Assembly: GCA_963755715.1 (NCBI GenBank)
Contig: CAVWLW010000069.1
Span: 32,001 to 96,000, forward strand
Direction of reading: 5' to 3'
DNA: 64,000 bases
Origin: an uncultured delta proteobacterium
Lineage (GTDB): Bacteria; Desulfobacterota; Binatia; UBA9968
The stretch's first letter is position 1. Every line of letters starts with the position of its first letter. The notes below the pieces were generated by a model. That model did not search any database, was not told the origin of the DNA, and saw only the letters and a program-made list of their open reading frames with translations. The position numbers were made by a program, and so were the translations under genes. Shown here piece after piece: positions 1 to 17,234 of the stretch.

Positions 1-1415
1 AATAGTTATGGATATGAAACCAGTGATCATCGGGCATATTGTTTTTCTTGGTGAACTCGACCCATTCCTTGGCCCATTCAGGCGAATCCGGTCCATGATG
101 CACGCGGATGCCGTGACCGTAGTGCATAACCCCGCTGCGGTTCCGTTCGGTAACGTTGTCGCCGATTTGATTTTCGTCTGGTCGCTTGTAAAACTTTGGG
201 TTGGTGCCGAGCGCGGCTTCGTAGAGCAGCCAGTAGCCCGGACGATCGTGATAGGGATAGGTGAGCTTCGTTGATCTTCGGATATTTTAGAAACTCGCGC
301 CAGGCTTCGGCGTAGACACCGCTTCCCCTAACATCGGCGACATAGCCGTCTTTGATTATAACTTCGGTTCGGGGAAAATGCCCCGCGTGATTTGCCGTGC
401 CGGCAATCACGCCGTCGGCCTTCGGCGTCGGCGAGCGCGGGTTCCATTTCTTTTGAAACGCCGGATATTCGACGACGGAATACGGGAATCGGCCCGTGGC
501 TTGATTGGGGAACATGTAGAGATGTCCTTGCTGGTAAACGCCGCGCGCCCAGCGCTCCGACATATCTTCGGTTAAATCGCTGCTGAGGTTGGTTCCTTCT
601 GGATCTGTGATCTCCAAACGATCCGCCCAGGCGATCGGCTCGATGGTGCGCTCTTCGGCCAAACGCCAGACATCGCCCGGAAATTGCGAGATCTTGCTCA
701 TCACCGTCCAGCGATTGTCGAAAACCATCACGCCAAGAAATTTCTCTTCGTAGGGCCGCACGTAACGTCTCAATGTCGTCGTCCCGGCTCTGCCCCAGAA
801 AAAACCTCTGACCTGGGGATTTTTCTCCAGGTAATCCTTGATCCCCTTGCCGATGTTCTCGCGGTCGAGCTTCTTTTGCGCTTCTTTCAATCGTTCGGGC
901 AACTGGGCGCGTGCCGGATACAACGCGTCATACAAATCGGGGCGTCTCTCTTTGAGCCACTTTTTTGGAACTTCAGGATCCGCGAAGCGCCCATCGATCC
1001 ACTGTCGCGCTTCGATGTAACCCTGCTCGGCAGTGAACTGGCGGCGCGCTTTGAGCAGTTCCGCTGCCTCGGCGCGGCTAACGCCGACCAATTCATAGTC
1101 GTGCAGCAGTTGAACCTTTACCCCGCGCTCTTCGATGGCTTTTTTGACCGCTTCGACAATCATGTCGTCCGCGGTCGCTTCGAGAACGATGGCGATGGCT
1201 TCGCCTTTTTTGACCATACCGAATCCGCCGCCTTGTAGCCCCGTGGTCTGGCTCGCAATAGAGCGCGCAAACGGCATGACCTCATCGATCGACTTCGGCG
1301 CCTTGGTGTAAGAAGGAAATCGTGGCGACGGATACGTGGCCTTCTCCGCAGCGTATGAAAACTCACTCTCTGTCAGAGCGACCGACAGGCTGAGCAAAGC
1401 GATCCATCGCTTCAT
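1..1415 (-). CDS. Exported M29/NicX-like (leucyl-aminopeptidase-like) metalloprotein, paralog 1; frameshift near 268, runs off the left edge
   Basis: Signal peptide MKRWIALLSLSVAL; YPSPRFPSY, DPEGTN and QQGHLYMFP motifs. Removing one A near 268 restores ELTYPYHDRPGYWLLYEAALGTNPK..ERNRSGVMHYGHG..DHWFHIHN, matching the three paralogs at 10.6-15.9 kb. Family assignment is from motif resemblance only. Confidence 0.75.
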
Positions 1416-1584
1416 AAGACCTCCAAGTTTTCCTCGTTTTCTTTTTATAGCTATCGATCTTCATCCATCCTAGCATTGCCTGAGTCGATCCTTCTCGATT
1501 CTGGCCGGTCGCCCCTTGGGTTCGAAAACATTGCGCGTTCAATTTTTTCAAGCCGCGAAAACTTTGACGGATAGTCATCCATAG

Positions 1585-2676
1585 CTAATTTTTCCAGAGC
1601 TGAGTAAAAAATCCGCTCTGTTCGATTTCTTGCAACACCGACAGATCGACAAAGCTCTCCGGCGACGCTTTCTTGGCTTGCGGGTTCCGCTCAGCCATTT
1701 CATCTATAATAAACTTTATTCCCTTAAGCGTCGGGTAGGGGATTTTTTCGAGTTTTTCTGAGTAGAACGTATAGGCGTCGTCCAATATGTCCTTGTCATC
1801 TATTCTTAAATACTTTTTCATCACCTGAATGGAAAAATCCCGGTCCGTAATAAACCGGTGCAGACCCTCGGCGTAGGCTTGGAGAAAGCCCTTCACCACG
1901 GGCCGCCGTTCGCGCATGTATTTAGTCGTGACCGTGACACAAGTCTGCTGAAGGTCCACGCCCAGCGTGTTCAAATCAAATAACTGTCTCATGCCAAGCT
2001 TTTTAGCGCGACTTGTTTGCGGAGGGTTGGCAAAGCCCGCTTGAATCGCCCCTCTCTCCAGCGCGGTAATGATCTCAGGCAAGCCGCCCATCTGAACGAC
2101 GGCCACATCCGTGTTTCGCTTCAGGCCGTAACGCTGAAGAAAAATTGACACTGCCGTGTCGCTCAAGGCGCCAAATCGAGATATCCCGAGCTTCTTCCCT
2201 TTGAGCTGCTCGGGACTCGTAATTTCCGGACGAGCGTAAATCGTGCCGGCAAGCTTGTTCTGCACACTCGCGATGATTCTCACGTCGGCCCCTGCCAAGA
2301 TCGCCCCGGCGGTAGAAACGCCGGTTACTTGAGCCAGCTGAATTTCGCCCGCAATCAGCGCTTGGGTGGCTGCAACCGCAGGGATATAAATGAGATCCGC
2401 TTCTATACCGTACTTTGAGAGGTAGCCTGCTTCTTTTGCTATCCAAGGAGCGACTTGCCCCGCGTTCAGAGCTGCATACGCGAACTTGATCGGTTGAGCG
2501 AAAACATCTGCGCTGCTTAAAAGGAGTAGCGTCAAAGACAGCACCAGATGCTTTATGAAAAACCGCCAGCCTAGTCGCCTGACCGAAACGATCGCGGCTT
2601 TCCTCTCATGGAGACTTCTCGTGGGGCCGTATGGAAAATCTGCGAGCAACGTTCGTGAGTGATCATAGAAGTTCAT
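1585..2676 (-). CDS. ABC substrate-binding protein, NMT1/SsuA/TauA family
   Basis: WIAKEAGYLSKYGI and LKGKKLGISRFG motifs; hydrophobic signal region; GAGGAGG RBS upstream. Confidence 0.85.
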   Translation of the reverse strand: MNFYDHSRTLLADFPYGPTRSLHERKAAIVSVRRLGWRFFIKHLVLSLTLLLLSSADVFAQPIKFAYAALNAGQVAPWIAKEAGYLSKYGIEADLIYIPAVAATQALIAGEIQLAQVTGVSTAGAILAGADVRIIASVQNKLAGTIYARPEITSPEQLKGKKLGISRFGALSDTAVSIFLQRYGLKRNTDVAVVQMGGLPEIITALERGAIQAGFANPPQTSRAKKLGMRQLFDLNTLGVDLQQTCVTVTTKYMRERRPVVKGFLQAYAEGLHRFITDRDFSIQVMKKYLRIDDKDILDDAYTFYSEKLEKIPYPTLKGIKFIIDEMAERNPQAKKASPESFVDLSVLQEIEQSGFFTQLWKN

Positions 2677-2716
2677 TTCACGATCCTCCTCTGTTACATT
2701 GCTTCATGCCTCATCT

Positions 2717-3673
2717 TCATTTCGCGGTGATCCCTAGCTCCTTCTGCGCATCTTTGAGAATCGAAAGATCCGCAACTTCCGATAGCGAAATCTCGCGCTC
2801 CACCTTGCCGAGCTTTTTTAGTTCGTCAATCACCAGGAGCATTCCCTTTTCGGGCACGCTTCCGTCTTCGTTGAAGAGCTTCAAGACGTTTTCATAGGTG
2901 GCCGTTGCCATCTCTTTATCAATCTTCGACCACTCCGTCATGAACTGAATTGTGCTCTCGCGATTCTGACGGATATAACGTGTGGCCTTGATCCCAGCCT
3001 TAATCACCCGCTTGACCTCATCCGGTTTCTCTTTGATCCTTTTTAGGCTAGCGACCACACCACTGGTAGGGTAACTGAAAAGTTCGTACGCCCTCGCAAG
3101 CACGACAAAACCCATCTTCTTACCGAGAAAATCCAGCGGGGGAGAGCCCATCGTGCCGGCGGTCAACCCCTGCTTCATCGCAGAAAAGCGGCGTTCGTTC
3201 GTGCCTAATGGAAGAAACTTGATGTCCTTGTCAGGGTCAAGCCCAAAATGCTTGAATATCAACCTTGCCGTAGACTCCAAAGCGCCGCCCGAGGTGTTGA
3301 GTCCAATTGCGTTACCCCTCAGCTCTTGAACGGATTTGAATTCGGGACGTGCAATGAGCGCGCTGGGGGAGCCCGGCACGTAACAGGCCAGCACTCTAAG
3401 CGGCGCTCCCTGGATCGCGGCCGCGACCGAATTTCCAATGACCGTCCAGTAATCAAGTTCTCCGCTGACTAATGCGGCGAGTGCAACGGTGGGATTTATG
3501 CGGATGATCTCACCTTGAAGACCATCCTCTTTAAAGAAGCTTCGCTTTTCTGCTAAAGCCAGAGGAAGAAATTGGGCGTTGAGTTCCGGAACGCCGATCC
3601 TGATCTTATCTGCGGCATGGACCGAGATGTGAAAGAGAAAAAGAACGAGCAAAGCGCCAAGAAATTTCTTCAT
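2717..3673 (-). CDS. ABC substrate-binding protein, NMT1/SsuA/TauA family
   Basis: Signal peptide; LAEKRSFFKEDGL and GLDPDKDI motifs; tandem paralog of 3713..4663. Confidence 0.85.
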   Translation of the reverse strand: MKKFLGALLVLFLFHISVHAADKIRIGVPELNAQFLPLALAEKRSFFKEDGLQGEIIRINPTVALAALVSGELDYWTVIGNSVAAAIQGAPLRVLACYVPGSPSALIARPEFKSVQELRGNAIGLNTSGGALESTARLIFKHFGLDPDKDIKFLPLGTNERRFSAMKQGLTAGTMGSPPLDFLGKKMGFVVLARAYELFSYPTSGVVASLKRIKEKPDEVKRVIKAGIKATRYIRQNRESTIQFMTEWSKIDKEMATATYENVLKLFNEDGSVPEKGMLLVIDELKKLGKVEREISLSEVADLSILKDAQKELGITAK

Positions 3674-3712
3674 AAGGCACCTCCGCTTCGTACGACCGGC
3701 CCAAATCGAAAA

Positions 3713-4663
3713 TTACTTTATCCCCATCTCCCTCTGTGCCACTCGGAGAATCGATAGTTCCGCAACATCGCTTAAAGAAACTTCTCGGGTCACCTTGGCC
3801 GCCCTCTTCGCCTCATCGATCAGAAGCCGCAGCCCGCTATCAGGGAGATTGAGATCTTCACTAAAAGTTCCCACGGAAGAATCGTACGTCGCCGCCGCCA
3901 TCGCGCTATCGATCTTCAGCCACTCCGCCATGATTGGCAGTGTGCCGTCACGATTCTGACGAATATACCGGTTGGCCTTGATGCTAGCTTTAATCGCCCG
4001 CCTGATCTCATCCGGCCTTTCTTTTATTTTCTTCGCGCTGGCGATCAATCCGCTGACCGGAAAATTGAATAGTTCATTCGCGCGGGCTAGCACGACAAAC
4101 CCCAACTTCTTACCGAGAAAATCCGTGGGCGGCGAGCCTAGAGTGGCATGAGTCAATCCTTGCTTCATCGCGCCAAAACGAGAGTCGAGTGGCCCCGTTG
4201 CGAGAAACTTGATCTCCGTGTCGGGATCAATGTTGAAATGTCGCAGCATCAGCCTGGCCATCCCTTCGAGAGCTCCAGCGTAAGCATTCACGCCGATGGT
4301 CTTACCCTTTAATTCGGGGACGGACTTTATTTCCGGTCGGGAGATTAGCGCAGTGGGAGAAATTGGCACGTAAGCAGCCACGAGCTTGACGGGCACTCCG
4401 CGGATCGCCGCGGCAACCCCAGGGCCAAGCACCGTATAGTAGTCGATGTCACCGCCGACCAACGCTTGAAACGCAATCGCAGGATTTATTCTGATGAACT
4501 CTCCTTGCAGTCCTTCGTCTTGGAAAAAGCCGCGCTTGTCCGCAATGGCCAGCGGAACGAACGGCGCAGCGAGATCTGGGAATCCGATCCTGATTTTCTC
4601 AACAGCAAAGGCTGACGTCTCGAGAACAAGGATCGCGAGCAGGGCCAAAAGACTCGTCCGCAT
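3713..4663 (-). CDS. ABC substrate-binding protein, NMT1/SsuA/TauA family
   Basis: Signal peptide; ADKRGFFQDEGL and LKGKTIGV motifs. Confidence 0.85.
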   Translation of the reverse strand: MRTSLLALLAILVLETSAFAVEKIRIGFPDLAAPFVPLAIADKRGFFQDEGLQGEFIRINPAIAFQALVGGDIDYYTVLGPGVAAAIRGVPVKLVAAYVPISPTALISRPEIKSVPELKGKTIGVNAYAGALEGMARLMLRHFNIDPDTEIKFLATGPLDSRFGAMKQGLTHATLGSPPTDFLGKKLGFVVLARANELFNFPVSGLIASAKKIKERPDEIRRAIKASIKANRYIRQNRDGTLPIMAEWLKIDSAMAAATYDSSVGTFSEDLNLPDSGLRLLIDEAKRAAKVTREVSLSDVAELSILRVAQREMGIK

Positions 4664-4753
4664 CGGAATCCTCCTGGCTATCGCGCTGAGTCGCTTTGTA
4701 TCAGCTCCCTTTGCAACAGTCCCGGTGGCGACCGGCGCAGTCTTGAACCCCGC

Positions 4754-6302
4754 CTACTTGAACTCCGCCTTCTTGCTCAAATAGAACTTGCGCATCGCCG
4801 GGCGATACTTATCCATCATCTCCCGGTTCAGGTCAACCGGCGGCTTGGCGCCCGGAGGCAGCAAAGAAAAATATTTGATCTCTTTCGTATCTTGCTCGAA
4901 CTGTTTCTTCGCCGCGGCAAGCAATTCCGGCGACGTCAACAAATCGAGGATCGAGGCCGCCATCACTTTGGCGCCCACCACGGCGCCTTTATGGGCAATT
5001 GAAGTCGTCGGCGCGATGCCGGCCGTCCAATGGTGCGCTTGCACTCCTGGTATTGCGGAGGGAAAACGCAGCGAGCCCATCGGTACGTTCCAAGTATAAT
5101 CACCGATATCGTTGGACGAAGTGTTCTGCGTGCCGGCGCGAAGCGGCGCGACTTCCGTCGATAACCCTACTTCTTTGGCGCCGATCGACTTCTGCACCTC
5201 CTTGGCGAACTTAATTTCGTCATCATTCCACTTCGGCATCCTCACCATCTCAATATTTTTCTGAATCGCTTCGGCGATCGCTTTGTTGCCGAGCGACGGC
5301 CACGCCGCGCCGAAGGGCTCCATTTCCATCGTCGTCCCCGTCATTAATGCAGCGCCGCGCGCAATGTTGACCAGCTTGTCAAAATTTTCCTTCGCCCAAG
5401 GTCCGTTGGCGTCGCGAATAAACCACCAGATCTGGCCAACGTCGGGAATAATGTTTGGCTGTACGCCGCCGATGGTGATCGCTCGATGGCCGCGGTACGT
5501 CGGCCGCAAATGTTCGCGCAGCTTGTCGAAACCGATATCCATCAACTCGACGGCATCGACTGCGTCGATGCCGTCCCAAGGATTGACGCCGCCGTGTGCG
5601 GTTCGTCCCTTGAAAGTAAACTTGGCGCCGATCAACGCGTAGTTCTGTAAGCCGTAACCTGTGGAGAGGCTATCTTGAATATGCGTGATAATGCCGGCAT
5701 CGACGTCTTTGAGATAACCGTCACGCACAAGATAAGGCCGGCTCATCAACTGCTCTTCCGCGGGACCGATCGAGAGAATCACCGTGCCTGCAATCTTGAA
5801 TTGCTCCATCGCTTTCTTGACTGCCTGCGCCGCCCCCACGGACATAGCAGCCATGACGTTATGGCCTTCCATATGTCCTGGCGCGCCCTCGACGAGCGGC
5901 TTGCGCGGAATGCTTCCCGGCGTTTGCGAACCTTCCGGTAGCGCATCCATCTCGGTGGCGATCAGAATCACCGGCTTACCCGATCCCCATGTCGCCCAAA
6001 CATTGGTCGGTAAACCCGCCCCGCCTAGCTCGACTTTGAAACCGATCTGCTCCAGCGTGCTTTTCAAATATTTCGAGCTTTCGTATTCCTGCATGCCCGG
6101 CTCGGCGAAATAGTAGAGCACGTCGCCGACAGTCGCGATTGCCTCGGCATTGCGGTCGACCGCCTCGAACGCGACCCGCTTGGGATCAGAGGGAGAGTCG
6201 GCCGTTGCTGGCGACCAAGACAAACGTGAGAACCAACACCGCCAGTATGAGCATAATGAAACTCAAGCTCTTACGAGAGAAAGTTCGTTGCAGCCATCCC
6301 AA
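4754..6302 (-). CDS. M20 family amidohydrolase (AbgB/aminobenzoyl-glutamate hydrolase-like), probably exported; frameshift near 6224
   Basis: EMDALP, GHMEGHN, PAEE, GRTAHGG and SNDIGD motifs. An upstream frame after a GGAGGA RBS encodes MGWLQRTFSRKSLSFIMLILAVLVLT, which joins the ORF if one T is removed. Confidence 0.85.
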
Positions 6303-6371
6303 AGTCCTCCGTTATGCGACGATTAAGCCTGAATTGCCGTAAAAACAGGCACCGAAACGTTGATCGAATAC

Positions 6372-6698
6372 CTAGGTGTCATTCCGAGCAGAGCGAGGAA
6401 TCTCGTCCTTGAACCATGCGGCACTGAGGTCGAGCCATTTAGGATTCATCGAATCGATCAAACGTGTTTTCTTCGCCCGCCGCCAACCTTTGATTTCTTT
6501 CTCTCGGGCCAATGCTGCCTGAACATCACTCGTTTCTTCGAAGTACACAAGTTCCGAAATATTGTAACGACTGGTAAAGCCAGGAATAATTTTATTCTTA
6601 TGTTCGTAGACACGGCGTACCAAGTCATTCGTAACGCCCGTGTACAGAGTACGAGAAGTGTTCGTCATGATGTATACAAAGTATTGGTCGCGAGGCAT
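6372..6698 (-). CDS. Small GIY-YIG nuclease (YhbQ/UPF0213-like)
   Basis: YFVYIM..TLYTGVTNDLVRRVYEHK..FT..Y..LVYFE..ALAREKEIKGWRR. Confidence 0.92.
   Translation of the reverse strand: MPRDQYFVYIMTNTSRTLYTGVTNDLVRRVYEHKNKIIPGFTSRYNISELVYFEETSDVQAALAREKEIKGWRRAKKTRLIDSMNPKWLDLSAAWFKDEIPRSARNDT
6377..6404. repeat. REP-like palindromic unit at the left end of the GIY-YIG cassette
   Basis: TGTCATTCCGAGCAGAGCGAGGAATCTC; imperfect inverted copy at 6720..6748. Confidence 0.75.
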
Positions 6699-6719
6699 GC
6701 ACTAACCCAAAGATCGGTC

Positions 6720-6748
6720 GAGACCCTTCGCTCGCGCTCAGGGTGACA
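6720..6748. repeat. REP-like palindromic unit at the right end of the GIY-YIG cassette
   Basis: Reverse complement reads TGTCACCCTGAGCGCGAGCGAAGGGTCTC. Confidence 0.75.
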
Positions 6749-6812
6749 CCCAAAGAGGACTTTTACTTGCCACGATGGGAACACTAAAAAACATGAATTC
6801 GAATGACGCGAA

Positions 6813-7529
6813 TCACACAAAATTCCCATCGCGCATATTGTAAACTTTTTTGAAATGCTCGACGGCCTTGGGATCATGGCTCGCCATGATCACCGTCTTG
6901 CCGTATTTCTCGGCGAGTGACAGAAAAAGTGCCGTGATCGTTTCAGTGTTTCCCGTGTCCAGATTGCCAGTGGGTTCATCGGCGAGAATGAGCGCGGGGT
7001 CGTTGGCCAACGACAGCGCCACGGCGACCCGTTGCTGCTCGCCGCCGCTCAGCTCCTCCGGCCGCTTGTTCGCTTTGGCGCCCAGGCCGACCATTTGCAA
7101 CAAGCCGTCGACGCGCTGTTTACGCTGCGCCGCATCGACATCGGCGATCAGCATCGGCAGCTCCAAATTTTCTCCCGCCGTGAGGGTCGGAATGAGATTG
7201 AAAAACTGAAAAACAAAGCCGACTTTGTGGAGCCGGTATTTTTCCAGATCGCGCTCGGAAAGTGCCGCGAGCTTCTGGTCGCCGACGAGAATGTCGCCGC
7301 CGGTCGAATGGTCGACTCCGCCGAGAAGATTGAGCAGCGTCGTCTTGCCGCAGCCGGACGGCCCCATCAATGCAACCGCCTCGCCCGGACCGATTTCCCA
7401 ATCGACGCCCTTCAACGCCCGCACTTGTTCCGCGGAAGTTTCGTAAGCCTTGGTCAGCTTGGCGACTTTGACCGGCACGCCGCGATTCTTGAAAAAACCG
7501 TTCTCCGCCATGATGTCCTCCGAAGTCAC
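6813..7529 (-). CDS. ABC transporter ATP-binding protein, LolD/MacB-like
   Basis: Walker A GPSGCGKT, signature LSGGEQQRVAVA, ILADEPTGNLD. Confidence 0.93.
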   Translation of the reverse strand: MTSEDIMAENGFFKNRGVPVKVAKLTKAYETSAEQVRALKGVDWEIGPGEAVALMGPSGCGKTTLLNLLGGVDHSTGGDILVGDQKLAALSERDLEKYRLHKVGFVFQFFNLIPTLTAGENLELPMLIADVDAAQRKQRVDGLLQMVGLGAKANKRPEELSGGEQQRVAVALSLANDPALILADEPTGNLDTGNTETITALFLSLAEKYGKTVIMASHDPKAVEHFKKVYNMRDGNFV

Positions 7530-7536
7530 AATGATT

Positions 7537-7610
7537 GGAGTGATGGAATGTTGGAGTACTGGAGTGATGCACTCGGCCTACCCATGACTCCATCACTCCA
7601 TTACTCCAGT
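7537..7610. repeat. Intergenic 8-mer tandem repeats (GGAGTGAT-like) facing their inverse (ACTCCATC-like)
   Basis: GGAGTGATGGAATGTTGGAGTACTGGAGTGATG...ACTCCATCACTCCATTACTCCA; similar unit at 46563..46630. Confidence 0.7.
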
Positions 7611-7620
7611 GCCCTACTCG

Positions 7621-10573
7621 TTATCCTTCCGTCATGCTCGTGCGCGCCGAGCGGCGGAATACCCATAGGCTAAAAAGCAACGCGATGGCTACCACAACCG
7701 CCAGCAATCCGAGGCTGATCCACACAGTCCAATCGGAAATCACCAGATGTGTCGGCAACAGATGAACGACAGACTTCAGTTCGCGCAGGCTCCAAATCAA
7801 ATTCGTCAAACCGAAGCCGGCGGCGCCCGCAACCAAGAGACCCACGACAAGACCGAGCAATGCCGGCGCGAGCAGGCTCGAAGCAAAGAACCTGAAGAGC
7901 AACACCGGCGACACGCCGCGCACGCGCAGCAAACCTAAAGTGCGGCGGTCTTCGAGATAGTTCGTCAACGCAATGGCGAGAATCGCGATCAGCGCCAAGA
8001 GCACGCCGCCGATGAGATAGATCCGCATGTTCTCCAGCGCGAGAAAGATAAACATATCGCCGCCAACCTTCTTCAGCTCGCGCTTGAGCTCGCGCACTTC
8101 CAGTGGACGAGATTTGAGCGTTTGCGACAGAGACTTCACAATCGCTTGAGCGTCGCCGTCCGGTTTCACCCGCACGAGCAAGAGAATGCGCGGAATCAGA
8201 ACTTTAAGATTGGCCATTCGCGGGTTGTCCATCGTTCCGACGAGATAGGCATCGGTGCTGGAAAGATAGTTCAAGTAATCGATGCGCGCCGAGACATAAC
8301 TCTGCCGATCGGAAATGCTGCGCGGCGGCATGCCGGGAAGAAAGCCGACGATGCCGCTCGCGGGTACCAACACCGGTTTTTTGCTCAGATCGGCGCCCAA
8401 CAGCACCGGCTCGCCCGCGCTCAGGTTCCAAAACGCCGCCACCGGTGGCGACGCCGCAATGGTTTGACCCTTTAATTCCGTGATCACCTCGCTGAACTTC
8501 CCGGTGACTCCCAGTTTTTCTTCGAAGATGGTGTTTTTCAAATAGCGCTGTGGATCGTCGATCAGATAAAGCGGGACGCCGCTGAGTCCGTATCCCGGAA
8601 AGAAAAAACCGGGCAAAATTGCTTCGAAGAGATACTCAATCGACGTTACCTGTGGGTGTTGAAAGGAAGCTAGACGTTCTTTCAAGGCCGAGCGAATCGC
8701 TTGCACCTGGCCGCCAAGTCCCTGTTCGAATTGCTCCGCCGAGACCAGATCGGTGGGACTAATCGACACGTGCAGTTCGCTGCCGACTTGCACCGTGGCG
8801 CCGCGCAGCGCTTTGTCTTCGAAAGACTTGGACGCGATGCTCGGATACAAGCTCACGCTCGCCATCAGGCCGACGATCAGAAGAAAACTCGAAATCCGGT
8901 GCGGCTTGAGCGACATATGCTTGAGCGACAGCGTGCGCAGCTTGCCGCCGACGAAGTAAGTCACCGAGCTGAGCAGCCCGCTGATCAATTGGCGCTGGGC
9001 GACGAGCAGCGCGACCAGACCGTAAACGAAAAGCGGCAGGGCGATGAAATCGAGCGCCCGATCGAGCATGGTCGCGGCTTGAACAAATTGAGTCCACGCC
9101 GCGCTGTCTTCCTCGCCGGCGACGAGATGCGACGACAAACTGTAATCGGCGATCCAGCCGACAATCTTGTAAGCGCCGATCAAGAGCGCGAGCCATTCCA
9201 GCGCAGCGAAACCGCTGCGCGCTTGGGTCAGCTCCGACACCGCCACGCGGCGCGACGCCTCGAGCGGTGAAATCGTCGTCGCATAACGAATCAGCTTGCG
9301 GCTGATCAGCAGGACCAACACTAACCCGACGATCAAGAACAACAACATCAGCAGCGGTCCCTGGACGCGTGAGAGGGTGGTCCAGGACAGCACGCCGCCT
9401 TCGTAAACATACAGCGGAATGAGCGTTCCCAGCGTCAGTCCGATGATGCCGCCAATCAGCCCGCCAAGCCCGATCGAGATCAATAGACTTTGGCCGAGCA
9501 GTTTTCCCGGCACGCCGCGCAGGCGCATGAGACCGAGCTTGCGCCGCTCATTGAGAATCAGCAGTGACGAAAGATTCGACGCGAGCATCCAGGCAATCGC
9601 GAGCAGAGGAATAGCGATCAGTAGCGTCGCCAAGCCGATCAGGCGGGAGATTTCCGCCATGCGCTTGAGCAGAACAAGAATCGCGTTGTCGACAAAGATC
9701 GTCGGCCCCAAAGATTTGGATTTTTGATCAACCTCGGCATGGAGCTTCTCTAAGATTTGCCAGCGAACCTTGAATATCCCAGCCGGAGATCAGCGCCTTT
9801 CGGTCGACGCGCGCTAGATGAACGACTTCCGGAAGATATTCCCCCGCGGTCACGTGAATATCGGTGTGATCGCCGAGCGCTCCGCGCGACAATGCATCGA
9901 AGCGCTGGAGCAGTTCGAAGCTATGGGGCACGACGAGAATGACGCCGATGTAAGGGACAAAAGAAATCGAGCCGATCTCATCCATGAAATAGCGATTCAC
10001 TTCCGAACGTTCCAAACGCACGATACCGCTGAGCGCCATGTCAAAAACGCCGGCGCTGGTCTTTTTGTGCTCGGAGTAAACTCGCACGGTAAAGCGGCGC
10101 GAGCCCTGGAGCGCCAAATACGCTTTGCCCATGTGCTGCTCGGGACCCACGAGCGCAAGAAATGCCTTGTTGCCGTTGGCCGCCGTCGGCCGCGCTTCGG
10201 GCGGCAAGAGCGAAACGTCGGTCGCCGACAGAACCGACACCCAGGGTGATGCGAGCGGCTTGCCGTCGACCATCAGAATCGCTTCCGGCGGCGGTTTGGA
10301 GCGCAGGAAACTCAAGCTTTCGACCCGTTGAATGCCGGAGATCTTGCGCAATATCGGCGAGACTTCAGCGGAGATTGAAAAATCGCTGGTCTGGTAAAGC
10401 GCAATGTCCCAGGACAAGCGTGAAAGCTGATCTTCGATATAGAGCTTCAGCGCATAATGGGAGGCCAAATTGATCGCCGCCAATAAACCGGCGACTAAAA
10501 GTGTGACGATCCCGAAAGCAAGAAAGGCTCTTTTGCCAAGAATTTGCGCAAGTCGGACGTGCAGGCTGCTCAC
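7621..10573 (-). CDS. Large FtsX/MacB-type ABC permease with two FtsX modules; frameshift near 9745
   Basis: ERRKLGLMRLRG and EDRRTLGLLRVRG FtsX motifs; many TM segments; ORFs 9728..10573 and 7621..9711 join on removing one base (ANLRELHAEVDQKSKSLGPT). Confidence 0.85.
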
Positions 10574-10658
10574 TTTTACATTTTGGATTTTAGATTTTCG
10601 ATTAGGGATTCAACACAGGATTCCGGTCGAGAACCTAAAACCTCATGTCCTTTCCTGC

Positions 10659-12356
10659 TCATTTTTTCGGTTTCACCGGCGGATAAAAATACTCGAAGGT
10701 GCCGGCGTCGATCTTCCGCATGACTTCGCTAAAAGTTTTCCACGGGTCTTTCGCGTAGTCCTGATACTTTCCCGGAGCGTTGATTCCGGGAATATACGGC
10801 GACCAGTCATCGCTCAGCACTTCGTCGGGATTGCCGTAGCGCGACGCCAGAGCGCGAATCTCCGGACTCTTGAGGGCATTCACTTCGCCTTTTTCGATCA
10901 AGGTCATCCAAGTGTTTTTGGTGCCGCGTACGCGCACGCGGTAAGTCGGCAGCGTATTATGAATATGCCACCAGTGATCGTTGGGCAATCCGTTTTGCTT
11001 GGCGAAATCCATCCATTCCTTGGACTCCGTCGCTTTGTCCGGTCCGTGATCGAGACGAAGGCCAAAACCCCAATGAATCACACCGGCGTTGTTGCGTTCG
11101 GAACCATTGGTTCCTTCCATATTCTCATCCGGCCGCCTAAAGAATTTCGGATTGGTGCCCATGCCCGCTTCATAGATCCACCAGTAACCGGGCTGGTCGT
11201 GAAAAGGATAAGTGAGCTCGTTGATCTTCGGATATTTGAGAAACTCGCGCCATAACTCGCCGTATAGGCCGCCGCCTTTGACTTCCTTGACATAGCCGTC
11301 CTTGACGTGCACTTCGATGCGCGGATAGGAGCCGGTGTGGTTGCTGGTTCCGGCGAAGACGCCATTCACTTTGACAAGAAAACGAGGATTATATTTTTTT
11401 GTGAATGCCGGATAATCGACGGAAGAGTATGGAAAGCGGCCGGTTGCCTGATGAGGAAACATGAATAGGTGACCTTGCTGATAAGCCCCTTCCGCCCACG
11501 CTTGCGCCTGCTTTTCCTCGAGCTCGAATGAAAAATTCGTTCCTTCAGGGTCATTCACTTCGACCCGATCTGTCCACGCCAGCGGCTCGACGACGCGTTC
11601 TTCCGCCAAGCGCCAGATGTCGCCGGGAAAAGTCGCGGCTTTGTTCATGAGCTCATAGCGGTTGTCAAAAATAAAGTTGCCGTAGAATTTGCTGCCGTGC
11701 GGCTCGATCGCTTTGCGTGTAACTGTCCGGCCGCCGCGCCGCCAAAAAACTGCATTGACGTCTTTGTGCTGATCGAGATATTTGATGATCGAATCGGCGA
11801 CGCTCTTGCCGCCAAAGCGTCTGCCCAGATCGATGAGCTCCTGCGCGCTGTCGTCTTCGCGTTGAAATACGGCCTTGTAAAGATCCGGACGCCGCTCTCT
11901 CAGCCACTTTTTGGGAATCTCGGCGTCGCCGAAGCGTTGCAAAATCCACGCGCGCATTTCCATGTAGCCCTGCTCCGAGGTGAACCAGCGGTTGGCTTTC
12001 ACCGCTTTCATCGCCTCTTCCTTGCTGACACCGAGGAGCTGGTACTCCGGAACGATCTGGATCTTTACGCCACGCTCTTCATAGGCGCGTTTGATCGCTT
12101 GCAGGATCATGTCTTCAGCCGTCGGTTCGGTGAAGATCGCGACTGTTTGTCCCTTCTCGACAAGCCCCAACGGAGTGCGGCCTCCGGTCTGGCGCACCGC
12201 CGCACGAGCAAAAGGCATGACGTCGTCGATCGATTTCGGCGGCCTGACGTAAGATGGAAAACGCGGCGCCGGATATTTGCCTTTTTCCTGCGCGCCAGTC
12301 AAACCGATTAGCGAAAACAAGATAAGTGCTGTCCAGCCAATTCTCGCTATCTTCAC
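10659..12356 (-). CDS. Exported M29/NicX-like metalloprotein, paralog 2
   Basis: Probable GTG start at 12356 after a GAGGG RBS, then a signal peptide; KYPAPRFPSY, QQGHLFMFP, EAGMGTNPK, ERNNAGVIHWGFG and HWWHIHN motifs. Confidence 0.8.
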   Translation of the reverse strand: MKIARIGWTALILFSLIGLTGAQEKGKYPAPRFPSYVRPPKSIDDVMPFARAAVRQTGGRTPLGLVEKGQTVAIFTEPTAEDMILQAIKRAYEERGVKIQIVPEYQLLGVSKEEAMKAVKANRWFTSEQGYMEMRAWILQRFGDAEIPKKWLRERRPDLYKAVFQREDDSAQELIDLGRRFGGKSVADSIIKYLDQHKDVNAVFWRRGGRTVTRKAIEPHGSKFYGNFIFDNRYELMNKAATFPGDIWRLAEERVVEPLAWTDRVEVNDPEGTNFSFELEEKQAQAWAEGAYQQGHLFMFPHQATGRFPYSSVDYPAFTKKYNPRFLVKVNGVFAGTSNHTGSYPRIEVHVKDGYVKEVKGGGLYGELWREFLKYPKINELTYPFHDQPGYWWIYEAGMGTNPKFFRRPDENMEGTNGSERNNAGVIHWGFGLRLDHGPDKATESKEWMDFAKQNGLPNDHWWHIHNTLPTYRVRVRGTKNTWMTLIEKGEVNALKSPEIRALASRYGNPDEVLSDDWSPYIPGINAPGKYQDYAKDPWKTFSEVMRKIDAGTFEYFYPPVKPKK

Positions 12357-12415
12357 GGCGATCCCTCTTAAACTTTTGAACCTTTGAACGATTGAACCTT
12401 GAACTGCGCCCAGCG

Positions 12416-14098
12416 CTATTTCTTCTTCGGATAGAAATACTCGTACGTTCCGGCATTCACTTTTTTCATGACTTCCATAAACGTCTTCCAGGGATCCTTG
12501 GCATAGTCCTCGTATTTCCCCGGCGCGTTGATACCCGGCAGATGCGGCACCCAATCTTCCGCCAGCACTTCGTTGGGATCACCGTAGCGCGATGCCAAGG
12601 CGCGAATCTCCGGACTCTTGTATGCCGTAAGCTCGCCTTTATCGATGATCGTTATCCAAGTGTTCTTCGTGCCGTGCACCCGCCCGCGATAGGTCACCAG
12701 CGTGTTGTGGATATGCCACCAGTGGTCCTTCGGCAAACCGTTCTGTTTGGGGAAATCGATCCACGCCTTCGATTCTTCCGGCTTGTCGGGATCATGAATC
12801 ACGCTGCCACCAAAGCCCCAGTGAATCACGCCAGCGTTGTTTCGCTCCGATTGATTGTTGCCTTCCATGTTTTCATCGGGCCGCTTGAAAAACTTTGGGT
12901 TGGTGCCGAGCCCTGCTTCGTAGAACCACCAGTAGCCCGGCTTTTCTTGATAAGGATAGGTCAGCTCGTTGATTTTGGGATACTTGAGAAACTCGCGCCA
13001 CAGCTCGCCGTAGACGCCGCCGCCTTTGACCTCCGTCACATAGCCGTCTTTGACGTAAACTTCGATGCGTGGATAAGAGCCGGCGTGGTTGCTCGTGCCG
13101 GCGAATACACCGTTGACTTTGGTCTGCAGCGGCGCGTTCCATTTCTTTTGAATCGCCGGATAGTCAACGACGGAAAAAGGAAATCGTCCCGTCGCCTGAT
13201 AGGGCGACATGAACAAATGCCCTTGATTGTAGGCGCCCGACGCCCAAGTCTTCGCTTCCTCTTCGGTCAATTCGAAGGACATGTTCGTGCCTTCGGGATC
13301 GAATGCTTCGACGCGGTCGAGCCACGCGAGCGACTCGAGCACGCGCTCTTCCGCCAGACGCCAGACGTCGCCTGGGAACGTCGACGCTTTGTTCATCAGC
13401 TCGTAGCGGTTGTCGAAAATATAATTGCCGTAAAATTTTGCGCTATGCTGCTTGAGCAAACGCGCCGTGCGTGGTCGGCCGCCGCGGCGCCAGAAGACCG
13501 CTTTGATGTCGGGGTGCTGATCCAGATATTTGATCATCGCCTCGGCGACGTTCGGCCCGCCGAACTGTTTGGCCAGCTCGCGTTGCTTTTGCGGGACTTC
13601 GTCACCCTTGGTGTAAATCGCGTTGTAGAGATCCGGGCGGCGCTCTTTGAGCCATTTTTTCGGTACTTCGGGATCGACGAACAGATCATCGATCCAGCGG
13701 CGCACTTCCATATAGCCCTGCTCCGAAGTAAACCAGTGCATGGCGTGAATCGCCTTCAGCGCTTCTTCTTTGTTCACGCCCAAAAGCTCGTGCTCGCCGA
13801 CGATGTAAGTCTTGACGCCGCGCTCCTCGTACGCTCTCTTGATCGCCTGCATCACCATCGGATCGGCGCCGACTTCAGTGACGATAAGCGCGGCCGTGCC
13901 TTTTTCGACCAGGCCCAACGGCGTGCGGCCGCCGGTTTGGCGTGCCGCCGCGCGCGCAAAAGGCATGATGTCGTCGATGGATTTCGGCGGCTTCAAATAC
14001 GAGGGAAAACGCGGCGCGGGATATTTTTTACTTTCCGCCGCGCCGGCAGATTGAAAACTGCCGAACAAGATCATCGCTATCGCAAAAAGATATTTCAT
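12416..14098 (-). CDS. Exported M29/NicX-like metalloprotein, paralog 3 (intact)
   Basis: Signal peptide MKYLFAIAMILFGSFQSAGA; same motif set as the other paralogs. Confidence 0.8.
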   Translation of the reverse strand: MKYLFAIAMILFGSFQSAGAAESKKYPAPRFPSYLKPPKSIDDIMPFARAAARQTGGRTPLGLVEKGTAALIVTEVGADPMVMQAIKRAYEERGVKTYIVGEHELLGVNKEEALKAIHAMHWFTSEQGYMEVRRWIDDLFVDPEVPKKWLKERRPDLYNAIYTKGDEVPQKQRELAKQFGGPNVAEAMIKYLDQHPDIKAVFWRRGGRPRTARLLKQHSAKFYGNYIFDNRYELMNKASTFPGDVWRLAEERVLESLAWLDRVEAFDPEGTNMSFELTEEEAKTWASGAYNQGHLFMSPYQATGRFPFSVVDYPAIQKKWNAPLQTKVNGVFAGTSNHAGSYPRIEVYVKDGYVTEVKGGGVYGELWREFLKYPKINELTYPYQEKPGYWWFYEAGLGTNPKFFKRPDENMEGNNQSERNNAGVIHWGFGGSVIHDPDKPEESKAWIDFPKQNGLPKDHWWHIHNTLVTYRGRVHGTKNTWITIIDKGELTAYKSPEIRALASRYGDPNEVLAEDWVPHLPGINAPGKYEDYAKDPWKTFMEVMKKVNAGTYEYFYPKKK

Positions 14099-14134
14099 CG
14101 CCGTCTCCCTAAGTTTGGCGCTTATTTTCTCTAA

Positions 14135-14175
14135 ACGATTTGAACGGCTTGAACGTTTTGAACGATTGGAACGAT
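14135..14175. repeat. Intergenic 9-mer tandem repeat (TTGAACGNN)
   Basis: TTGAACGGC TTGAACGTT TTGAACGAT TGGAACGAT; related arrays at about 12371-12405, 33208-33236 and 38245-38266. Confidence 0.75.
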
Positions 14176-14177
14176 TT

Positions 14178-15879
14178 TCATTGTTTCGGTTTAATCGGCG
14201 GATAGAATCCCTCGTAACTCCCAGATTGAATTCGGTTGATCACGCCGGAGATCGTTTTCCACGGATCTTTTGCGTAGTCTTCATACTTGCCCGGCGCGTT
14301 GATGCCCGGCAGATGCGGCGCCCAATCGTCGCTCAAGCACATCGCGCGGGTCGCCGTAACGCGAGGCCAGGGCGCGAACTTCGGGACTCTTGAAGGCGGT
14401 CAGCTCGCCTTTGTCGATGAGCGTGATCCAGCTACTCTTCGTGCCGCGCACTTTCACGCGGTAGGTCGGCAGCAGATTGTGAATATGCCAGCCATGATCG
14501 TCCGGCAAATTCGCCGTCTTGGTAAATTCGGTCCACTCTTTCGGCAGCAGCGCCTCTTTGGGCCCGTGCAACATGTTCAAACCGAAGCCCCAGTGAATCA
14601 CGCCGGCGTTGTTGCGCTCGGAGATATTGTTGCCTTCCATGTTTTCATCCGGGCGCTTGAAAAATTTCGGATTGGTTCCCAAGCCGGCTTCGTGCAGCCA
14701 CCAGTAGCCTTTTTGCGGCATAAACGGATACTGTGCCTCGTTGATGTTTGGGTACTTTAAAAATTCGCGCCATAGATCGCCGTAAATGCCGCCACCCTTG
14801 ACCTCGCTCACGACACCGTCTTTGACCGTCACTTCGATTCTCGGATAGGCGCCATAATGGTTATTGGTGCCGGCGAACACACCGTTGACTTTGATCAGCA
14901 CGGGCGCAAGCCAATGTTTGCTCCAAGCAGGATAATCGACTTTGGAATAAGGAAACCCGCGCGTCGCCTGAGTCGGGTATAGATAAAGATGACCCTGCTG
15001 ATAAGCTCCTTCTCCCCACGCCTCCGCTTCTTTCTCGGTCAATGAAAAGGTGAAGTTGGTGCCCTCCGGATCGGTCACCTGAACCTGATCGACCCAACCG
15101 AACGATTCGATCACGCGCTCTTCGGCAAGCTTCCAAACGTCGCCGGGAAACGTCGCCGCTTTGTTCATCAGCTCCCAGTGATTGTCGAAGATGAAGTTGC
15201 CGAGCAGTTTTTCGCCCTGTTTGCCCATCGCTTTGCGGGTGTTTGGCCGGCCGCCGCGGCGCCAGAAGACGCCTTTGATTTCTGGATGAGCATCCAAATA
15301 TTTCTCCAGCAAAGCGCCCATATTTCTCTGCGCCAGTTTGCCGAAAATTTCTTTGTGCGCCGGCGTAATCACTTCGTCGTCGCGCGAAAACATTGCCTTA
15401 TAGATATCCGGGCGCCGTTCCTTGAGCCATTTCTTCGGCACCTCGGGATCGGCGAAGCGCTGCGTGATCCACGGTTTAATCTCCATATAGCCAAGTTCCG
15501 ACGTGTACCATTTGTTCGCTTTGATCGCTTTCAACACCTCCTCGCGGCTGACGCCCGCAAGCTCGTATTCGGGGATAATGCGCACTTCGACGCCGCGTTC
15601 TTTATAGGCGCGCACGATCGCTTGCAGCACGGTATCGTCGGCAACGGCTTCGGTGACGAGTCCGATCAGCGTTCCCTTTTCGACCAAACCCAGCGGTGTG
15701 CGGCCGCCGGTCTGACGCACCGCCGCGCGGGCAAACGGCATGATGTCTTCGATCGACTTTGGCGGCTTGACGTAGGACGGAAATCGCGGCGTGGGATATT
15801 TGGCGGTCTCGGCGGCGCGGAGCGGTAAAACCAACACCAGCGAAACCAAAGAGATAAAAATCGTCATCGTCGACTTCAT
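14178..15879 (-). CDS. Exported M29/NicX-like metalloprotein, paralog 4; frameshift near 14335
   Basis: ATG at 15879 after GGAGGA; signal peptide; removing one base restores VLSDDWAPHLPGINAPGKYEDYAKDPWK..FYPPIKPKQ, as in the paralogs. Confidence 0.8.
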
Positions 15880-15949
15880 GCGATCCTCCGCGAAGCTCGT
15901 GGCTTTTGCCGGTCGAACCAACGATTAATTTGAATATATTTGGAAACGA

Positions 15950-15998
15950 TTTGGAATCTAGTGACTTTGAAGAGGGGTTGTCAAGCGAATTTCGCTTG
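15950..15998 (-). promoter_or_regulatory. Sigma70-type promoter with a palindromic operator overlapping -35
   Basis: Minus strand TTGACA-18 nt-TAGATT; CAAGCGAA-T-TTCGCTTG palindrome; near-identical copy at 21539..21585. Confidence 0.65.
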
Positions 15999-16118
15999 GC
16001 ATTGGGGAATCGTCGTTGTGAAACTTTTCTAAAATCTCAAGAGTAAAAACGCCCTGAGATACCAACAGAAAATATTTCGATCTCGATGTGTTGCCGAACG
16101 GGGAGACTATCGTCTGAC

Positions 16119-17234
16119 TCATTTGCTGAGAATCTTTTCGGCAAACTCGGCCGCCGGCCGGCGAACTTTGATGACTTTATCCTCTAGATGGTTGCGCAAC
16201 CTGTGATAGTCCGTAAGAGTCATGACGTCCTTGGCGGCATCGACACCGATCTGGCTCATCCATTTCGTATCCACGTCTAAACGTCGCGTTCCCTGCTTCA
16301 TGACCTTCGCGTAAAACTCTTGGCCTTCTTTGCCGAGAAACCAGTTGACGAACACTTTCATTGCATTCGGATGGGGCGGATTCTTGACGATCCCAAGCAC
16401 GCCGTAGCCGCTGCTCGCCGGCAGCCCTTCTTTGGGAGTCGGAAGTTCTTTGATCGGCAGGCCGGCGTTAAGAAATGGCTCATACTCGGATCGGCCGAGG
16501 CCGATGGTCACCGCGAGTTTTCCTTTTGCAAGCGCATCCGCGACCTGTCGAAGATTGCGGCTCAGGAAAAGATCTTGCTGCACGAGCTTCTTAAGGTAAT
16601 CCTCGCCCTTGATCTCCCACATAAAAGACCACAGCGAGATTCCCGAACCGCCGATGCGCGGATCGTTCAAACCGATTTTGCCCTTCCACTTGGGATTCAG
16701 AAGATCGTCGAAAGAGCGTACCTCATCCGCCTTCGCCAAATCGGCATTGTAGAACAACCCTTCAGTGCCCGCGTTGGCGACGAATGAATAAAGGAAACGA
16801 TTGGTCTTTAGGTTATCGTTCCAGATATGGCCGCCCCACCAGTTTTTGGGATCTTTCACCTCAGGTAAAATCATATAGGCGCTCACGGCGTCCAACATGC
16901 CATTGTCTTGCAGGGACATCGCCGTCGTCGTTCCTTGAATCAAACCGTCGATGGTGCGCACGCCGGCGTTATACTCTGACGAGATCCGGTTCGCCGAATC
17001 CGCGCCGCGCGACACCAGTAGCTCGGCATCGATGCCGAATTTTTGTTTCAACAAGGGCTCCAGCTCCTTTCTCAATTCAGCGCTGGGCGGAATCGCCAAT
17101 ACAATCTTGCCCTCGGCCTTGGCCTTTTGCAGCGCCGTCTCCCATTCGCCGCGCCATTCGGCGGCGGATGCTGGCTGCGACATGACAAAAATTGCCACGA
17201 CCATTGGGAACAGAGAAACTATTGTCTTCGTCAT
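16119..17234 (-). CDS. ABC substrate-binding protein, Fe3+/thiamine/polyamine (AfuA-like) family
   Basis: Signal peptide; AKAEGKI, DLLNPKWKGKIG and PPHPNAMKVFVNWFLGKEGQ motifs. Confidence 0.85.
   Translation of the reverse strand: MTKTIVSLFPMVVAIFVMSQPASAAEWRGEWETALQKAKAEGKIVLAIPPSAELRKELEPLLKQKFGIDAELLVSRGADSANRISSEYNAGVRTIDGLIQGTTTAMSLQDNGMLDAVSAYMILPEVKDPKNWWGGHIWNDNLKTNRFLYSFVANAGTEGLFYNADLAKADEVRSFDDLLNPKWKGKIGLNDPRIGGSGISLWSFMWEIKGEDYLKKLVQQDLFLSRNLRQVADALAKGKLAVTIGLGRSEYEPFLNAGLPIKELPTPKEGLPASSGYGVLGIVKNPPHPNAMKVFVNWFLGKEGQEFYAKVMKQGTRRLDVDTKWMSQIGVDAAKDVMTLTDYHRLRNHLEDKVIKVRRPAAEFAEKILSK

Follow-up and report, generated by a model that had tools for sequence, protein, structure and literature searches.

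A candidate YbbAP-TesA-like envelope system pairing exported NicX/M29-fold proteins with a type VII ABC transporter in an uncultured member of the Binatia

ATP-binding cassette (ABC) transporters of type VII take their function from a periplasmic partner, and few types of partner are known. YbbAP-TesA, the first case with an enzyme as partner, was reported as late as 2025; its permease has ten helices, with periplasmic domains between transmembrane helices (TM) 1 and 2 and between TM7 and TM8, and a pseudo-symmetry, and the hydrolase TesA is seated between the periplasmic domains of YbbP in a 2:1:1 complex (PMC12646458, excerpt). Outside cytoplasmic aminopeptidases, a ring-cleaving dioxygenase and proteins that bind peptides, the fold shared by M29 peptidases and NicX has not been known so far. 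The present analysis concerns a stretch of 64,000 nucleotides from an uncultured delta proteobacterium of the class Binatia (the window, G000:C69:32001-96000 of the source contig; GenBank contig CAVWLW010000069.1, assembly GCA_963755715.1), in which genes for several exported proteins related to that fold lie beside those of an FtsX-type ABC transporter. The conserved core of this cassette consists of one or more paralogs, the permease and the ATPase. By analogy, and with a probability of about 0.58, these three components would form a periplasm-facing type VII ABC machine resembling YbbAP-TesA, and the cassette would offer a second, unrelated enzyme partner for this transporter class.

From position 15879 to the left edge of the window, all real genes in the open reading frame (ORF) list lie on the minus strand, as does the promoter-like site ahead of par1. 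The cassette begins with three tandem paralogs: par1 (14202..15879, with an ATG at 15879 behind GGAGGA), par2 (12416..14098, 560 amino acids, aa) and par3 (10659..12356, with a GTG at 12356 behind AAGAGGG). Next come the gene of an FtsX-type permease of about 980 aa (7621..10573), which par3 adjoins here and which the par3 orthogroup adjoins in related loci too, and that of an ABC ATPase of the LolD/MacB/YbbA kind (6813..7529). The divergent fourth paralog, par4 (1..1415), has its start at 1415, at a distance of 9.2 kb from par3, and extends across the left edge as far as G000:C69:31717. A scan for related loci, based on one genome per species and a 12-sequence alignment as query, returned 44 loci, with the permease in 28 and the ATPase in 27 of those 28; the remaining locus ends inside the permease gene. 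Among the 16 loci without a permease, there are ten in which the contig stops no more than about 250 bases downstream of the paralog or is shorter than 4.4 kb, one has a weak partial match, and five (L028, L039, L041, L045 and L046) carry par4-kind or orphan copies. Cassettes were found in records labelled Binatia, Terriglobia/Acidobacteriota, Gemmatimonadota/Longimicrobiales and Candidatus Eutrophobius (Pseudomonadota), and in another genome of the window's own GTDB phylum. The linkage of the paralogs to an FtsX-type ABC system, first proposed in an earlier note on this DNA, therefore recurs in 28 of 44 loci and reaches well beyond close kin, although related genomes are not independent samples and such counts are no formal test. 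The cassettes in records labelled 'Verrucomicrobiia' (L031) and 'Candidatus Acidiferrales' (L014) nest tightly inside Binatia clades; wrong labels or binning errors are thus indicated here, not additional phyla.

When 20 loci from five lineage groups were compared all against all, the same core emerged: paralogs occurred in 19 loci, permeases in 18 and ATPases in 16, and these were the only three families widely common, four minor gene clusters spanning three to five loci each. Nothing recurrent emerged from a Pfam scan of 50 ORFs (49 neighbours and one permease) from eight distant loci. Of the 69 paralog copies with a hydrophobic leader, 59 sit in loci with a permease, as against none of the six leaderless copies, five of which come from one genome (G124), where they sit among UbiD, cupin, binding-protein and GntR genes, and one from another (G036). 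The distances between permeases and those between their adjacent paralogs are correlated (Spearman 0.69; none of 2000 permutations reached this value), so the cassette is inherited as a unit. A quick version of the paralog tree distinguished, among Binatia-type copies, the orthogroups of par1 (9 rows), par2 (14) and the permease-adjacent par3 (16), a downstream group (4) and one resembling par4 (6). The copies of Eutrophobius and Gemmatimonadota arose by duplication within their lineages, and those without a leader branch off outside. The source genome thus carries three tandem copies of distinct old orthogroups and a fourth, divergent one. In the Gemmatimonadota loci (L054:9450-11861; L051:7326-9965), unannotated ORFs of about 300-490 aa, which had no Pfam match, lie between the paralogs or just before them.

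The permease and the ATPase are assigned, from their sequences, to the type VII ABC transporters (MacB/FtsX superfamily). An FtsX domain (PF02687) was detected in all 22 of the 22 permeases, with a best E of 4.1e-13. The ATPase of the window is closest to LolD among NCBIfam models but scores below the LolD cut-off, and its best solved relatives are MJ0796, LolD, MacB, YbbA and BceA (E 4e-51 to 2e-43). The layout of the permease was derived from the hydropathy of an intact 983-aa ortholog (locus L019). On the N-terminal side, TM1 (16-34) is followed by a domain of about 275 aa (~35-310) and three helices within 311-423; on the C-terminal side, a helix at 507-537 precedes TM7 (562-580), a domain of about 260 aa (~581-840) and three helices within 841-972. 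Nine segments are clear, and a tenth helix at ~455-477, below the scan threshold, was read by eye; together with the helix at 507-537 it makes up a pair of linker helices between TM4 and TM7. The two halves match each other (probability 89, E 2.3e-06), and an ERRxLGLxRxRG stretch occurs both after TM2 and after TM8. Judged from these features, the permease has a predicted YbbP-type layout, an internally duplicated chain of about ten helices in which one periplasmic domain follows TM1 and another follows TM7.

The likeness to YbbAP-TesA accordingly lies in a single-chain permease of about ten helices with large domains after TM1 and TM7 and an internal duplication, and in a separate LolD/YbbA-like ATPase and a Sec-exported enzyme encoded beside it. 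The partner differs, being a GDSL serine esterase encoded by one gene in YbbAP-TesA and, here, a protein of the NicX/M29 fold with a His-rich site, encoded by one to eight adjacent genes. The YbbAP permease also has no sequence match to the permease of this locus, and the complex is here a proposed one. FtsEX-EnvC, LolCDE-LolA, MacAB-TolC and BceAB resemble the cassette in having an FtsX domain, an ATPase of the LolD/MacB type and a periplasmic partner that defines function; unlike these systems, the cassette holds no gene for an EnvC-like coiled coil, LolA, an adaptor or a duct. BceB lacks the first periplasmic domain (PMC12646458, excerpt), whereas both are predicted for the permease described here.

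These comparisons also bear on a reading in which the transporter expels a small product, peptide or toxin in the manner of MacB, with the exported enzymes maturing or trimming it outside the cytoplasm. An ATPase and an FtsX domain of the kind found in MacB, DevA and bacteriocin exporters would suit such a function, and CgnB and CgnE, which have the same fold as the paralogs, act on a ribosomal peptide (PMC10070186, in part). However, no gene for a precursor peptide, a membrane-fusion adaptor or an outer-membrane duct was widely common across the lineage groups compared, and the permease is a fused ten-helix chain of the YbbP/BceB type rather than a MacB-type chain with its own ATPase domain. 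Export followed by processing is thus rather unlikely, although it is the least unlikely of the alternatives considered here.

The four paralogs are clearly related, par1, par3 and par4 being 71, 63 and 49 % identical to par2, respectively, and YPxPRFPSY, DPEGTN, QGHL and GTxNH are common to par1-par4. The description of four related proteins with shared motifs therefore holds, with the qualification that the later motifs of par4 (GTNPK, H.G.G and HxxHIHN) are visible only in a second reading frame. The family has no name in the usual collections. Pfam and NCBIfam models gave no match to the four window paralogs at E <= 0.01, and matches of par1-par3 to Pfam up to E 10 were at chance level. 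The Peptidase M29 model (PF02073) did not match par1-par3 or three relatives at E <= 10; in the source genome its sole contact was an unrelated 352-aa ORF, at 18.7 bits, below the cut-off. A word-indexed search returned 663 related proteins at E <= 0.001, the named ones nearly all being annotated 'hypothetical protein' and coming mostly from records labelled Candidatus Binatia, and an exhaustive search returned 602 clusters (50 % identity), of which 143 reached E <= 1e-30. Precomputed PF26233 (NicX) labels were present on 6 of the 120 relatives listed. Searches of Pfam, NCBIfam, solved structures and proteins gave no characterized family at high identity, and the exported proteins are an undescribed branch of the M29/NicX structural superfamily with no Pfam or NCBIfam name.

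Export was called by a heuristic: a hydrophobic segment ahead of the YPxPR motif, with a 12-residue Kyte-Doolittle mean of at least 1.6, anchored by a profile. Such a leader was found in 69 of 76 copies, the others being the six leaderless copies and one start-cut copy in an error-rich contig. In the window copies, the leaders end in Ala-rich sites and contain neither Cys nor twin Arg, which fits Sec export of the window paralogs as predicted from these sequences. The earlier note had described these proteins as exported and larger than their cytoplasmic relatives, and they do have leader peptides and a length of about 560 aa, as against about 350 aa for NicX and about 300 aa for CgnB and CgnE. 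A lipoprotein nature was considered and rejected, since no Cys follows the leader in the window copies; among distant relatives, a few carry one. Nothing pointing to a defence system or mobile element turned up, although no dedicated search (PADLOC) was made.

The fold emerged from structure prediction and profile comparison. An AlphaFold2 model of par2, built from a 44-sequence alignment, had a mean pLDDT of 91.9 and a pTM of 0.89. All eight of its Foldseek matches at E <= 0.001 were to PepS, AmpT, AmpS or NicX (E 2.6e-11 to 8.2e-09), followed by CgnE (6.1e-03) and CgnB (1.1e-02). On the strength of this model, the paralogs are placed in the M29/NicX/CgnB structural superfamily, and the relatives found are exactly those that the earlier note had named. 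Direct sequence searches gave little: par2 against solved structures gave chance-level matches only, and the family profile alone reached NicX at E 0.27. The connection runs through two shorter proteins of the source genome. The family profile matched a cytoplasmic 369-aa homolog (L006:826-1935, G000:C18) with a probability of 99.7 (hhalign); this protein has a canonical IHVD motif and the same LKALDDPEVRxLAS tail, and forms a bridge to NicX, PF26233 labels being carried by 16 of the 26 proteins found with it. The profile matched a 352-aa protein with a probability of 98.1, and this protein itself matches NicX at E 1.6e-06. A joint profile matched NicX directly (E 3.6e-06) and a true M29 protein with a probability of 86.6 (E 4.5e-06). 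The 352-aa protein (L055:1387-2445, G000:C9) has Arg-Leu-Glu where NicX has His-Leu-Asp and may be a further variant of the NicX fold; its gene sits between a molybdopterin-dehydrogenase-like ORF and another ORF.

The modelled par2 protein has four elements beyond those of NicX: the leader, a helical stretch inserted at ~102-194, a loop near 300-328 that was modelled poorly, and a C-terminal tail beyond ~513. NicX/Hpo (2,5-dihydroxypyridine 5,6-dioxygenase; PDB 7CN3, PF26233), to which the likeness is the joint-profile match, is cytoplasmic and about 350 aa long, whereas the paralogs carry the leader, the insert and a 45-residue tail. The M29 enzymes AmpS, AmpT and PepS (PF02073; PDB 1ZJC, 2AYI and 4ICQ) share with the paralogs an aligned Glu, in E.G..P, and an aligned His, in H..G. 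They are, however, cytoplasmic dimers; the paralogs escape their Pfam model, show the M29 set EEHYHD only in partly recognizable form, and carry three additional invariant histidines, His294, His338 and His459. The crocagin proteins CgnB and CgnE (PDB 6ZSV and 6ZSU) are likewise prone to tandem duplication but are cytoplasmic proteins of about 300 aa that act on a ribosomal peptide, the second copy having no metal site (PMC10070186, in part), whereas all the copies of the family described here keep theirs.

Conservation of the predicted metal site was counted in the 76 full-length copies that the window and 51 loci provide. No copy lacks H294, H338, H426, H459, H462, H464 or E418. D267 is present in 75 copies and E269 in 73; E394 likewise occurs in 73, and the remaining three have Asp instead. 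In NicX, Fe(II) is held by an HX52HXD triad (PMC3831237, excerpt), and the catalytic set of M29 peptidases is EEHYHD (PMC7023490, excerpt). E394 aligns both with NicX His265 and with a Glu of the M29 protein, and H426 with a His of the M29 protein (hhalign). The HxD of the cytoplasmic homolog falls on the strand H459-x-x-H462-x-H464, its canonical His on H464; the position aligned to the Asp of HxD holds Tyr in 28 of 44 sequences and Thr in three, in a register that may be off by two. The NicX triad is accordingly absent, Glu394 standing at the first His and the place of the Asp not being conserved. Of the M29 set, E394 and H426 are matched by sequence alignment, and the terminal HxD region lies on H459/H462/H464, with no conserved Asp. 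We read this conservation as a putative working His-rich metal centre in every paralog copy. In the crocagin family, the duplicated copy CgnE lost the metal site and acts as a binding protein (PMC10070186, in part); that all copies here keep the site, when the crocagin duplicate loses it, argues for a working metal centre in all the paralogs. The maintenance of the site in each of par1-par4 suggests several specificities or a mixed assembly.

The same residues speak against a reading in which the paralogs are not enzymes at all but CgnE- or LolA-like binding or carrier proteins that receive a ligand from the transporter. There are precedents for this: CgnE, of the same fold, is a binding protein after loss of its metal site, and LolCDE passes its cargo to LolA (PMC12646458, excerpt). 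Each of the 76 copies, however, has all six histidines and Glu418, and the paralogs, unlike the crocagin duplicate, all keep the site, so a carrier function is very improbable, more so than any other alternative.

In the YbbAP-TesA-like reading preferred here, the ATPase would drive movements of the two periplasmic domains of the permease, and these domains would lift or present a membrane-bound or envelope-bound molecule to one or more docked metalloenzymes, the His-rich metal site of which would cleave it. The cleavage would somewhat more probably be hydrolytic than oxygen-dependent, because the aligned Glu and His are of the M29 kind, though this argument is weak. The data show the fold and homology of the paralogs, their leader peptides, the conserved linkage, the class of the transporter and, by hydropathy, its layout; of the scheme itself, we infer the docking, which way transport runs, and what metal, reaction and substrate are involved.

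Several observations weigh against this scheme. Searched as a single sequence, the permease matched neither YbbP nor any other permease among solved structures, and its profile found only YtrF (E 0.88). Pfam detected no MacB_PCD in the permeases, and the only lead to Porter/Sabre domains was a cluster of language-model look-alikes with PF12704 on 21 % of its members; such domains are presumed in the permease. Some paralogs lie away from any permease, namely par4 in the window and the copies of L028, L039 and L041, and within the genus of the source genome three genomes, G312, G342 (88 % complete) and G301 (65 %), have paralogs and no detected permease. The ligands differ from those of both reference families, with Glu at NicX His265 and an HxD carboxylate that is not conserved, and because the ligand sets differ from both, neither NicX nor M29 chemistry can be transferred to the paralogs. 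Gene linkage and shared history, finally, fall short of proving contact.

The distribution of the cassette is rare and patchy. The family was found in 4 of 301 genomes sampled from its own phylum, at E <= 1e-20, and in 1 of 151 genomes in the phylum of the Longimicrobiales carrier. Among 31 genomes of its own genus, six have the permease, all six of them together with exported-type paralogs (in G341 as fragments only), and 22, including G305, have neither. Paralog copy number ranges from one to eight in tandem, and the 2.7-Mb genome of locus L044 (G349, labelled Candidatus Eutrophobius brisbanensis) has 14 family matches, with eight copies in one tandem array beside a permease (e.g. C3:1380724-1393689). 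These figures are relevant to a function like that of FtsEX, in which the transporter would move nothing and would switch exported enzymes that trim cell-wall peptides or lipoprotein ends. Type VII systems often regulate periplasmic hydrolases, as in FtsEX-EnvC-amidase (PMC12646458, excerpt), M29 relatives are aminopeptidases (PMC7023490, excerpt), and 4 of the 20 loci in the comparison have a gene resembling SLT lytic transglycosylases in the vicinity of the cassette. A rare and patchy cassette is, however, unlike a core envelope function, and up to 14 copies in one 2.7-Mb genome fit substrate diversity better than regulation; control of the FtsEX kind is therefore improbable. The SLT-like ORFs themselves (L013:8020-9489, L019:843-2387, L023:7233-8783 and L050:5927-6937) belong to three Binatia-type loci and one Gemmatimonadota locus, and their position a few kb from the cassette could be due to chance or a hint of an envelope role.

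A broader, tentative extension of the YbbAP-TesA-like reading, which is more doubtful than that reading itself but less so than any of the alternatives, is that the cassette represents a new class of envelope machine, in which a YbbP-like mechanotransducer would feed membrane-embedded or surface hydrophobic molecules to an array of periplasmic NicX/M29-fold metalloenzymes. The chemistry might then be that of neither an aminopeptidase nor a dihydroxypyridine dioxygenase; lipids, lipopeptides or soil aromatics might, for example, be cleaved by oxidation or hydrolysis. If so, the expansion of the enzyme genes (8 in tandem, 14 per genome) would tune substrate range, and soil bacteria would gain an ATP-coupled attack on insoluble substrates outside the cytoplasm. 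A literature search, outside whose reach lay about 1.7 million PMC articles and the subscription journals, found no paper linking FtsX with Peptidase_M29 or NicX. Novel features are the partner family, the exported His-rich form in which it occurs, and its multiplicity. The substrate of the exported paralogs, once found, would give a function to hundreds of 'hypothetical' proteins, and work on it would test mechanotransmission as a general means of feeding membrane-bound substrates to exported enzymes.

Downstream of the ATPase, the window contains the gene of an M20 amidohydrolase of the TIGR01891 subfamily (4754..~6320, the upper boundary being approximate), which scores 173.3 bits for TIGR01891 (cut-off 153.75) and 28.4 for PF01546 (cut-off 24.6), and those of three NMT1/SsuA-like solute-binding proteins (3713-4663, 2717-3673 and 1585-2676). 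Pfam and NCBIfam agree with the gene content first reported, namely an M20 hydrolase, a LolD-like ATPase, an FtsX permease of about 980 aa and three NMT1-type proteins. All of these had been grouped with the paralogs into a single system, and one could imagine a single pathway of paralogs, ABC transporter, exported M20 enzyme and three binding proteins, in which an amide would be cleaved in the periplasm and uptake would follow. The order ATPase, M20, binding proteins, par4 does recur in L045 and partly in L011, L013, L019 and L035, and the M20 ortholog of L019 has a leader peptide. However, every locus in which the order recurs belongs to a close relative, at 68-100 % identity, and common descent therefore accounts for it. 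The M20 gene was found in 4 of the 44 loci (L011, L013, L019 and L045), all close relatives, and in none of the eight distant loci scanned, and the binding proteins, at 60 % identity or more, in L011, L027, L035, L045 and L046, again all close relatives. No importer permease lies beside the binding proteins within 1-16000, and the idea that the system has uptake components of its own finds no support. The paralogs, permease and ATPase thus stand as the conserved unit, whereas the M20 and NMT1 genes do not extend beyond close relatives; a single pathway comprising the full layout is about as improbable as control of the FtsEX kind, and we take the genes for M20 and the binding proteins to be local neighbours in this lineage, which might share a pathway with the core.

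Single-base insertions or deletions (indels) split four genes of the window within 16 kb. They lie in par4 near 267, in the M20 leader near 6286, in the permease near 9751 and in the tail of par1 near 14335-14338. As a consequence, the permease appears as two ORFs in different frames (9728-10573 and 7621-9711), the M20 leader is in another frame, and par1 appears as an ORF at 14281-15921 with its C-terminal 45 residues in another frame (piece at C69:46202-46336). The sites were checked against contigs from short-read soil metagenomes of three studies. One base is absent at 267 in X1, X5 and X10, at 6286 in X1 and X5, at 9751 in X1, at 14335 in X5, and at 14338 in X1 and X10. In 25 loci of relatives, one unbroken ORF of 964-1067 aa encodes the permease (983 aa in L019), and the M20 ortholog of L019 is intact, with 517 aa including the leader peptide. 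As the short-read contigs lack the extra base at the same places, the four genes are whole in the population, and the indels of the window are most likely assembly errors. The earlier note was right that the genes are real, but passed over the four frame breaks and skipped a small GIY-YIG ORF at 6372-6698. The close relatives L011 and L022 have other split genes; the assembly of the source genome may be indel-prone, which suggests caution with its other 'pseudogenes'.

DNA nearly identical to that of the window occurs in 20 listed runs of 13 studies, mostly soil or rhizosphere metagenomes. Among the pieces listed from one metatranscriptome (X18), eight short contigs fall on the M20, permease and paralog genes, which is no proof of transcription; nor do stretches that no contig covers carry any meaning. 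A spike in depth at 6982-7518 corresponds to the conserved ABC ATPase region of many organisms. Ahead of par1 lies a promoter-like site (15955..15984; TTGACA, 18 nt, TAGATT), which is weak evidence from a pattern scan that found four sites in the region, as against 8.3 expected by chance, and so proves nothing alone. An Rfam search over the whole window gave zero RNA families.

The GIY-YIG ORF (6372..6698, 108 aa, identified by Pfam), between the ATPase and M20 genes, is probably outside the system. Similar small ORFs occur at L011:17470-17754, L028:1211-1519 and L046:10326-10556, beside paralog or ATPase genes of close relatives, and this recurring ORF might be a selfish nuclease gene marking points of rearrangement. 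Upstream of the cassette, a polysaccharide deacetylase is encoded at 17466-18335 and a class II aldolase at 19607-20329. Genes for SBP_bac_8 and NMT1 binding proteins are numerous in the window (16119-17234, 18453-19661 and 1585-4663), with no importer permease genes adjacent to them. To the left of the window, downstream of par4 (L010, G000:C69:14001-32000), are genes for another NMT1 binding protein, a cupin/HgmA-like ORF, a UbiD-like decarboxylase and a LigB-type dioxygenase, along with a zinc alcohol dehydrogenase gene and additional binding-protein genes, a neighbourhood like those of aromatic catabolism. UbiD and cupin genes flank the leaderless homologs of G124 (L056) as well as the par4 side of this locus (L010).

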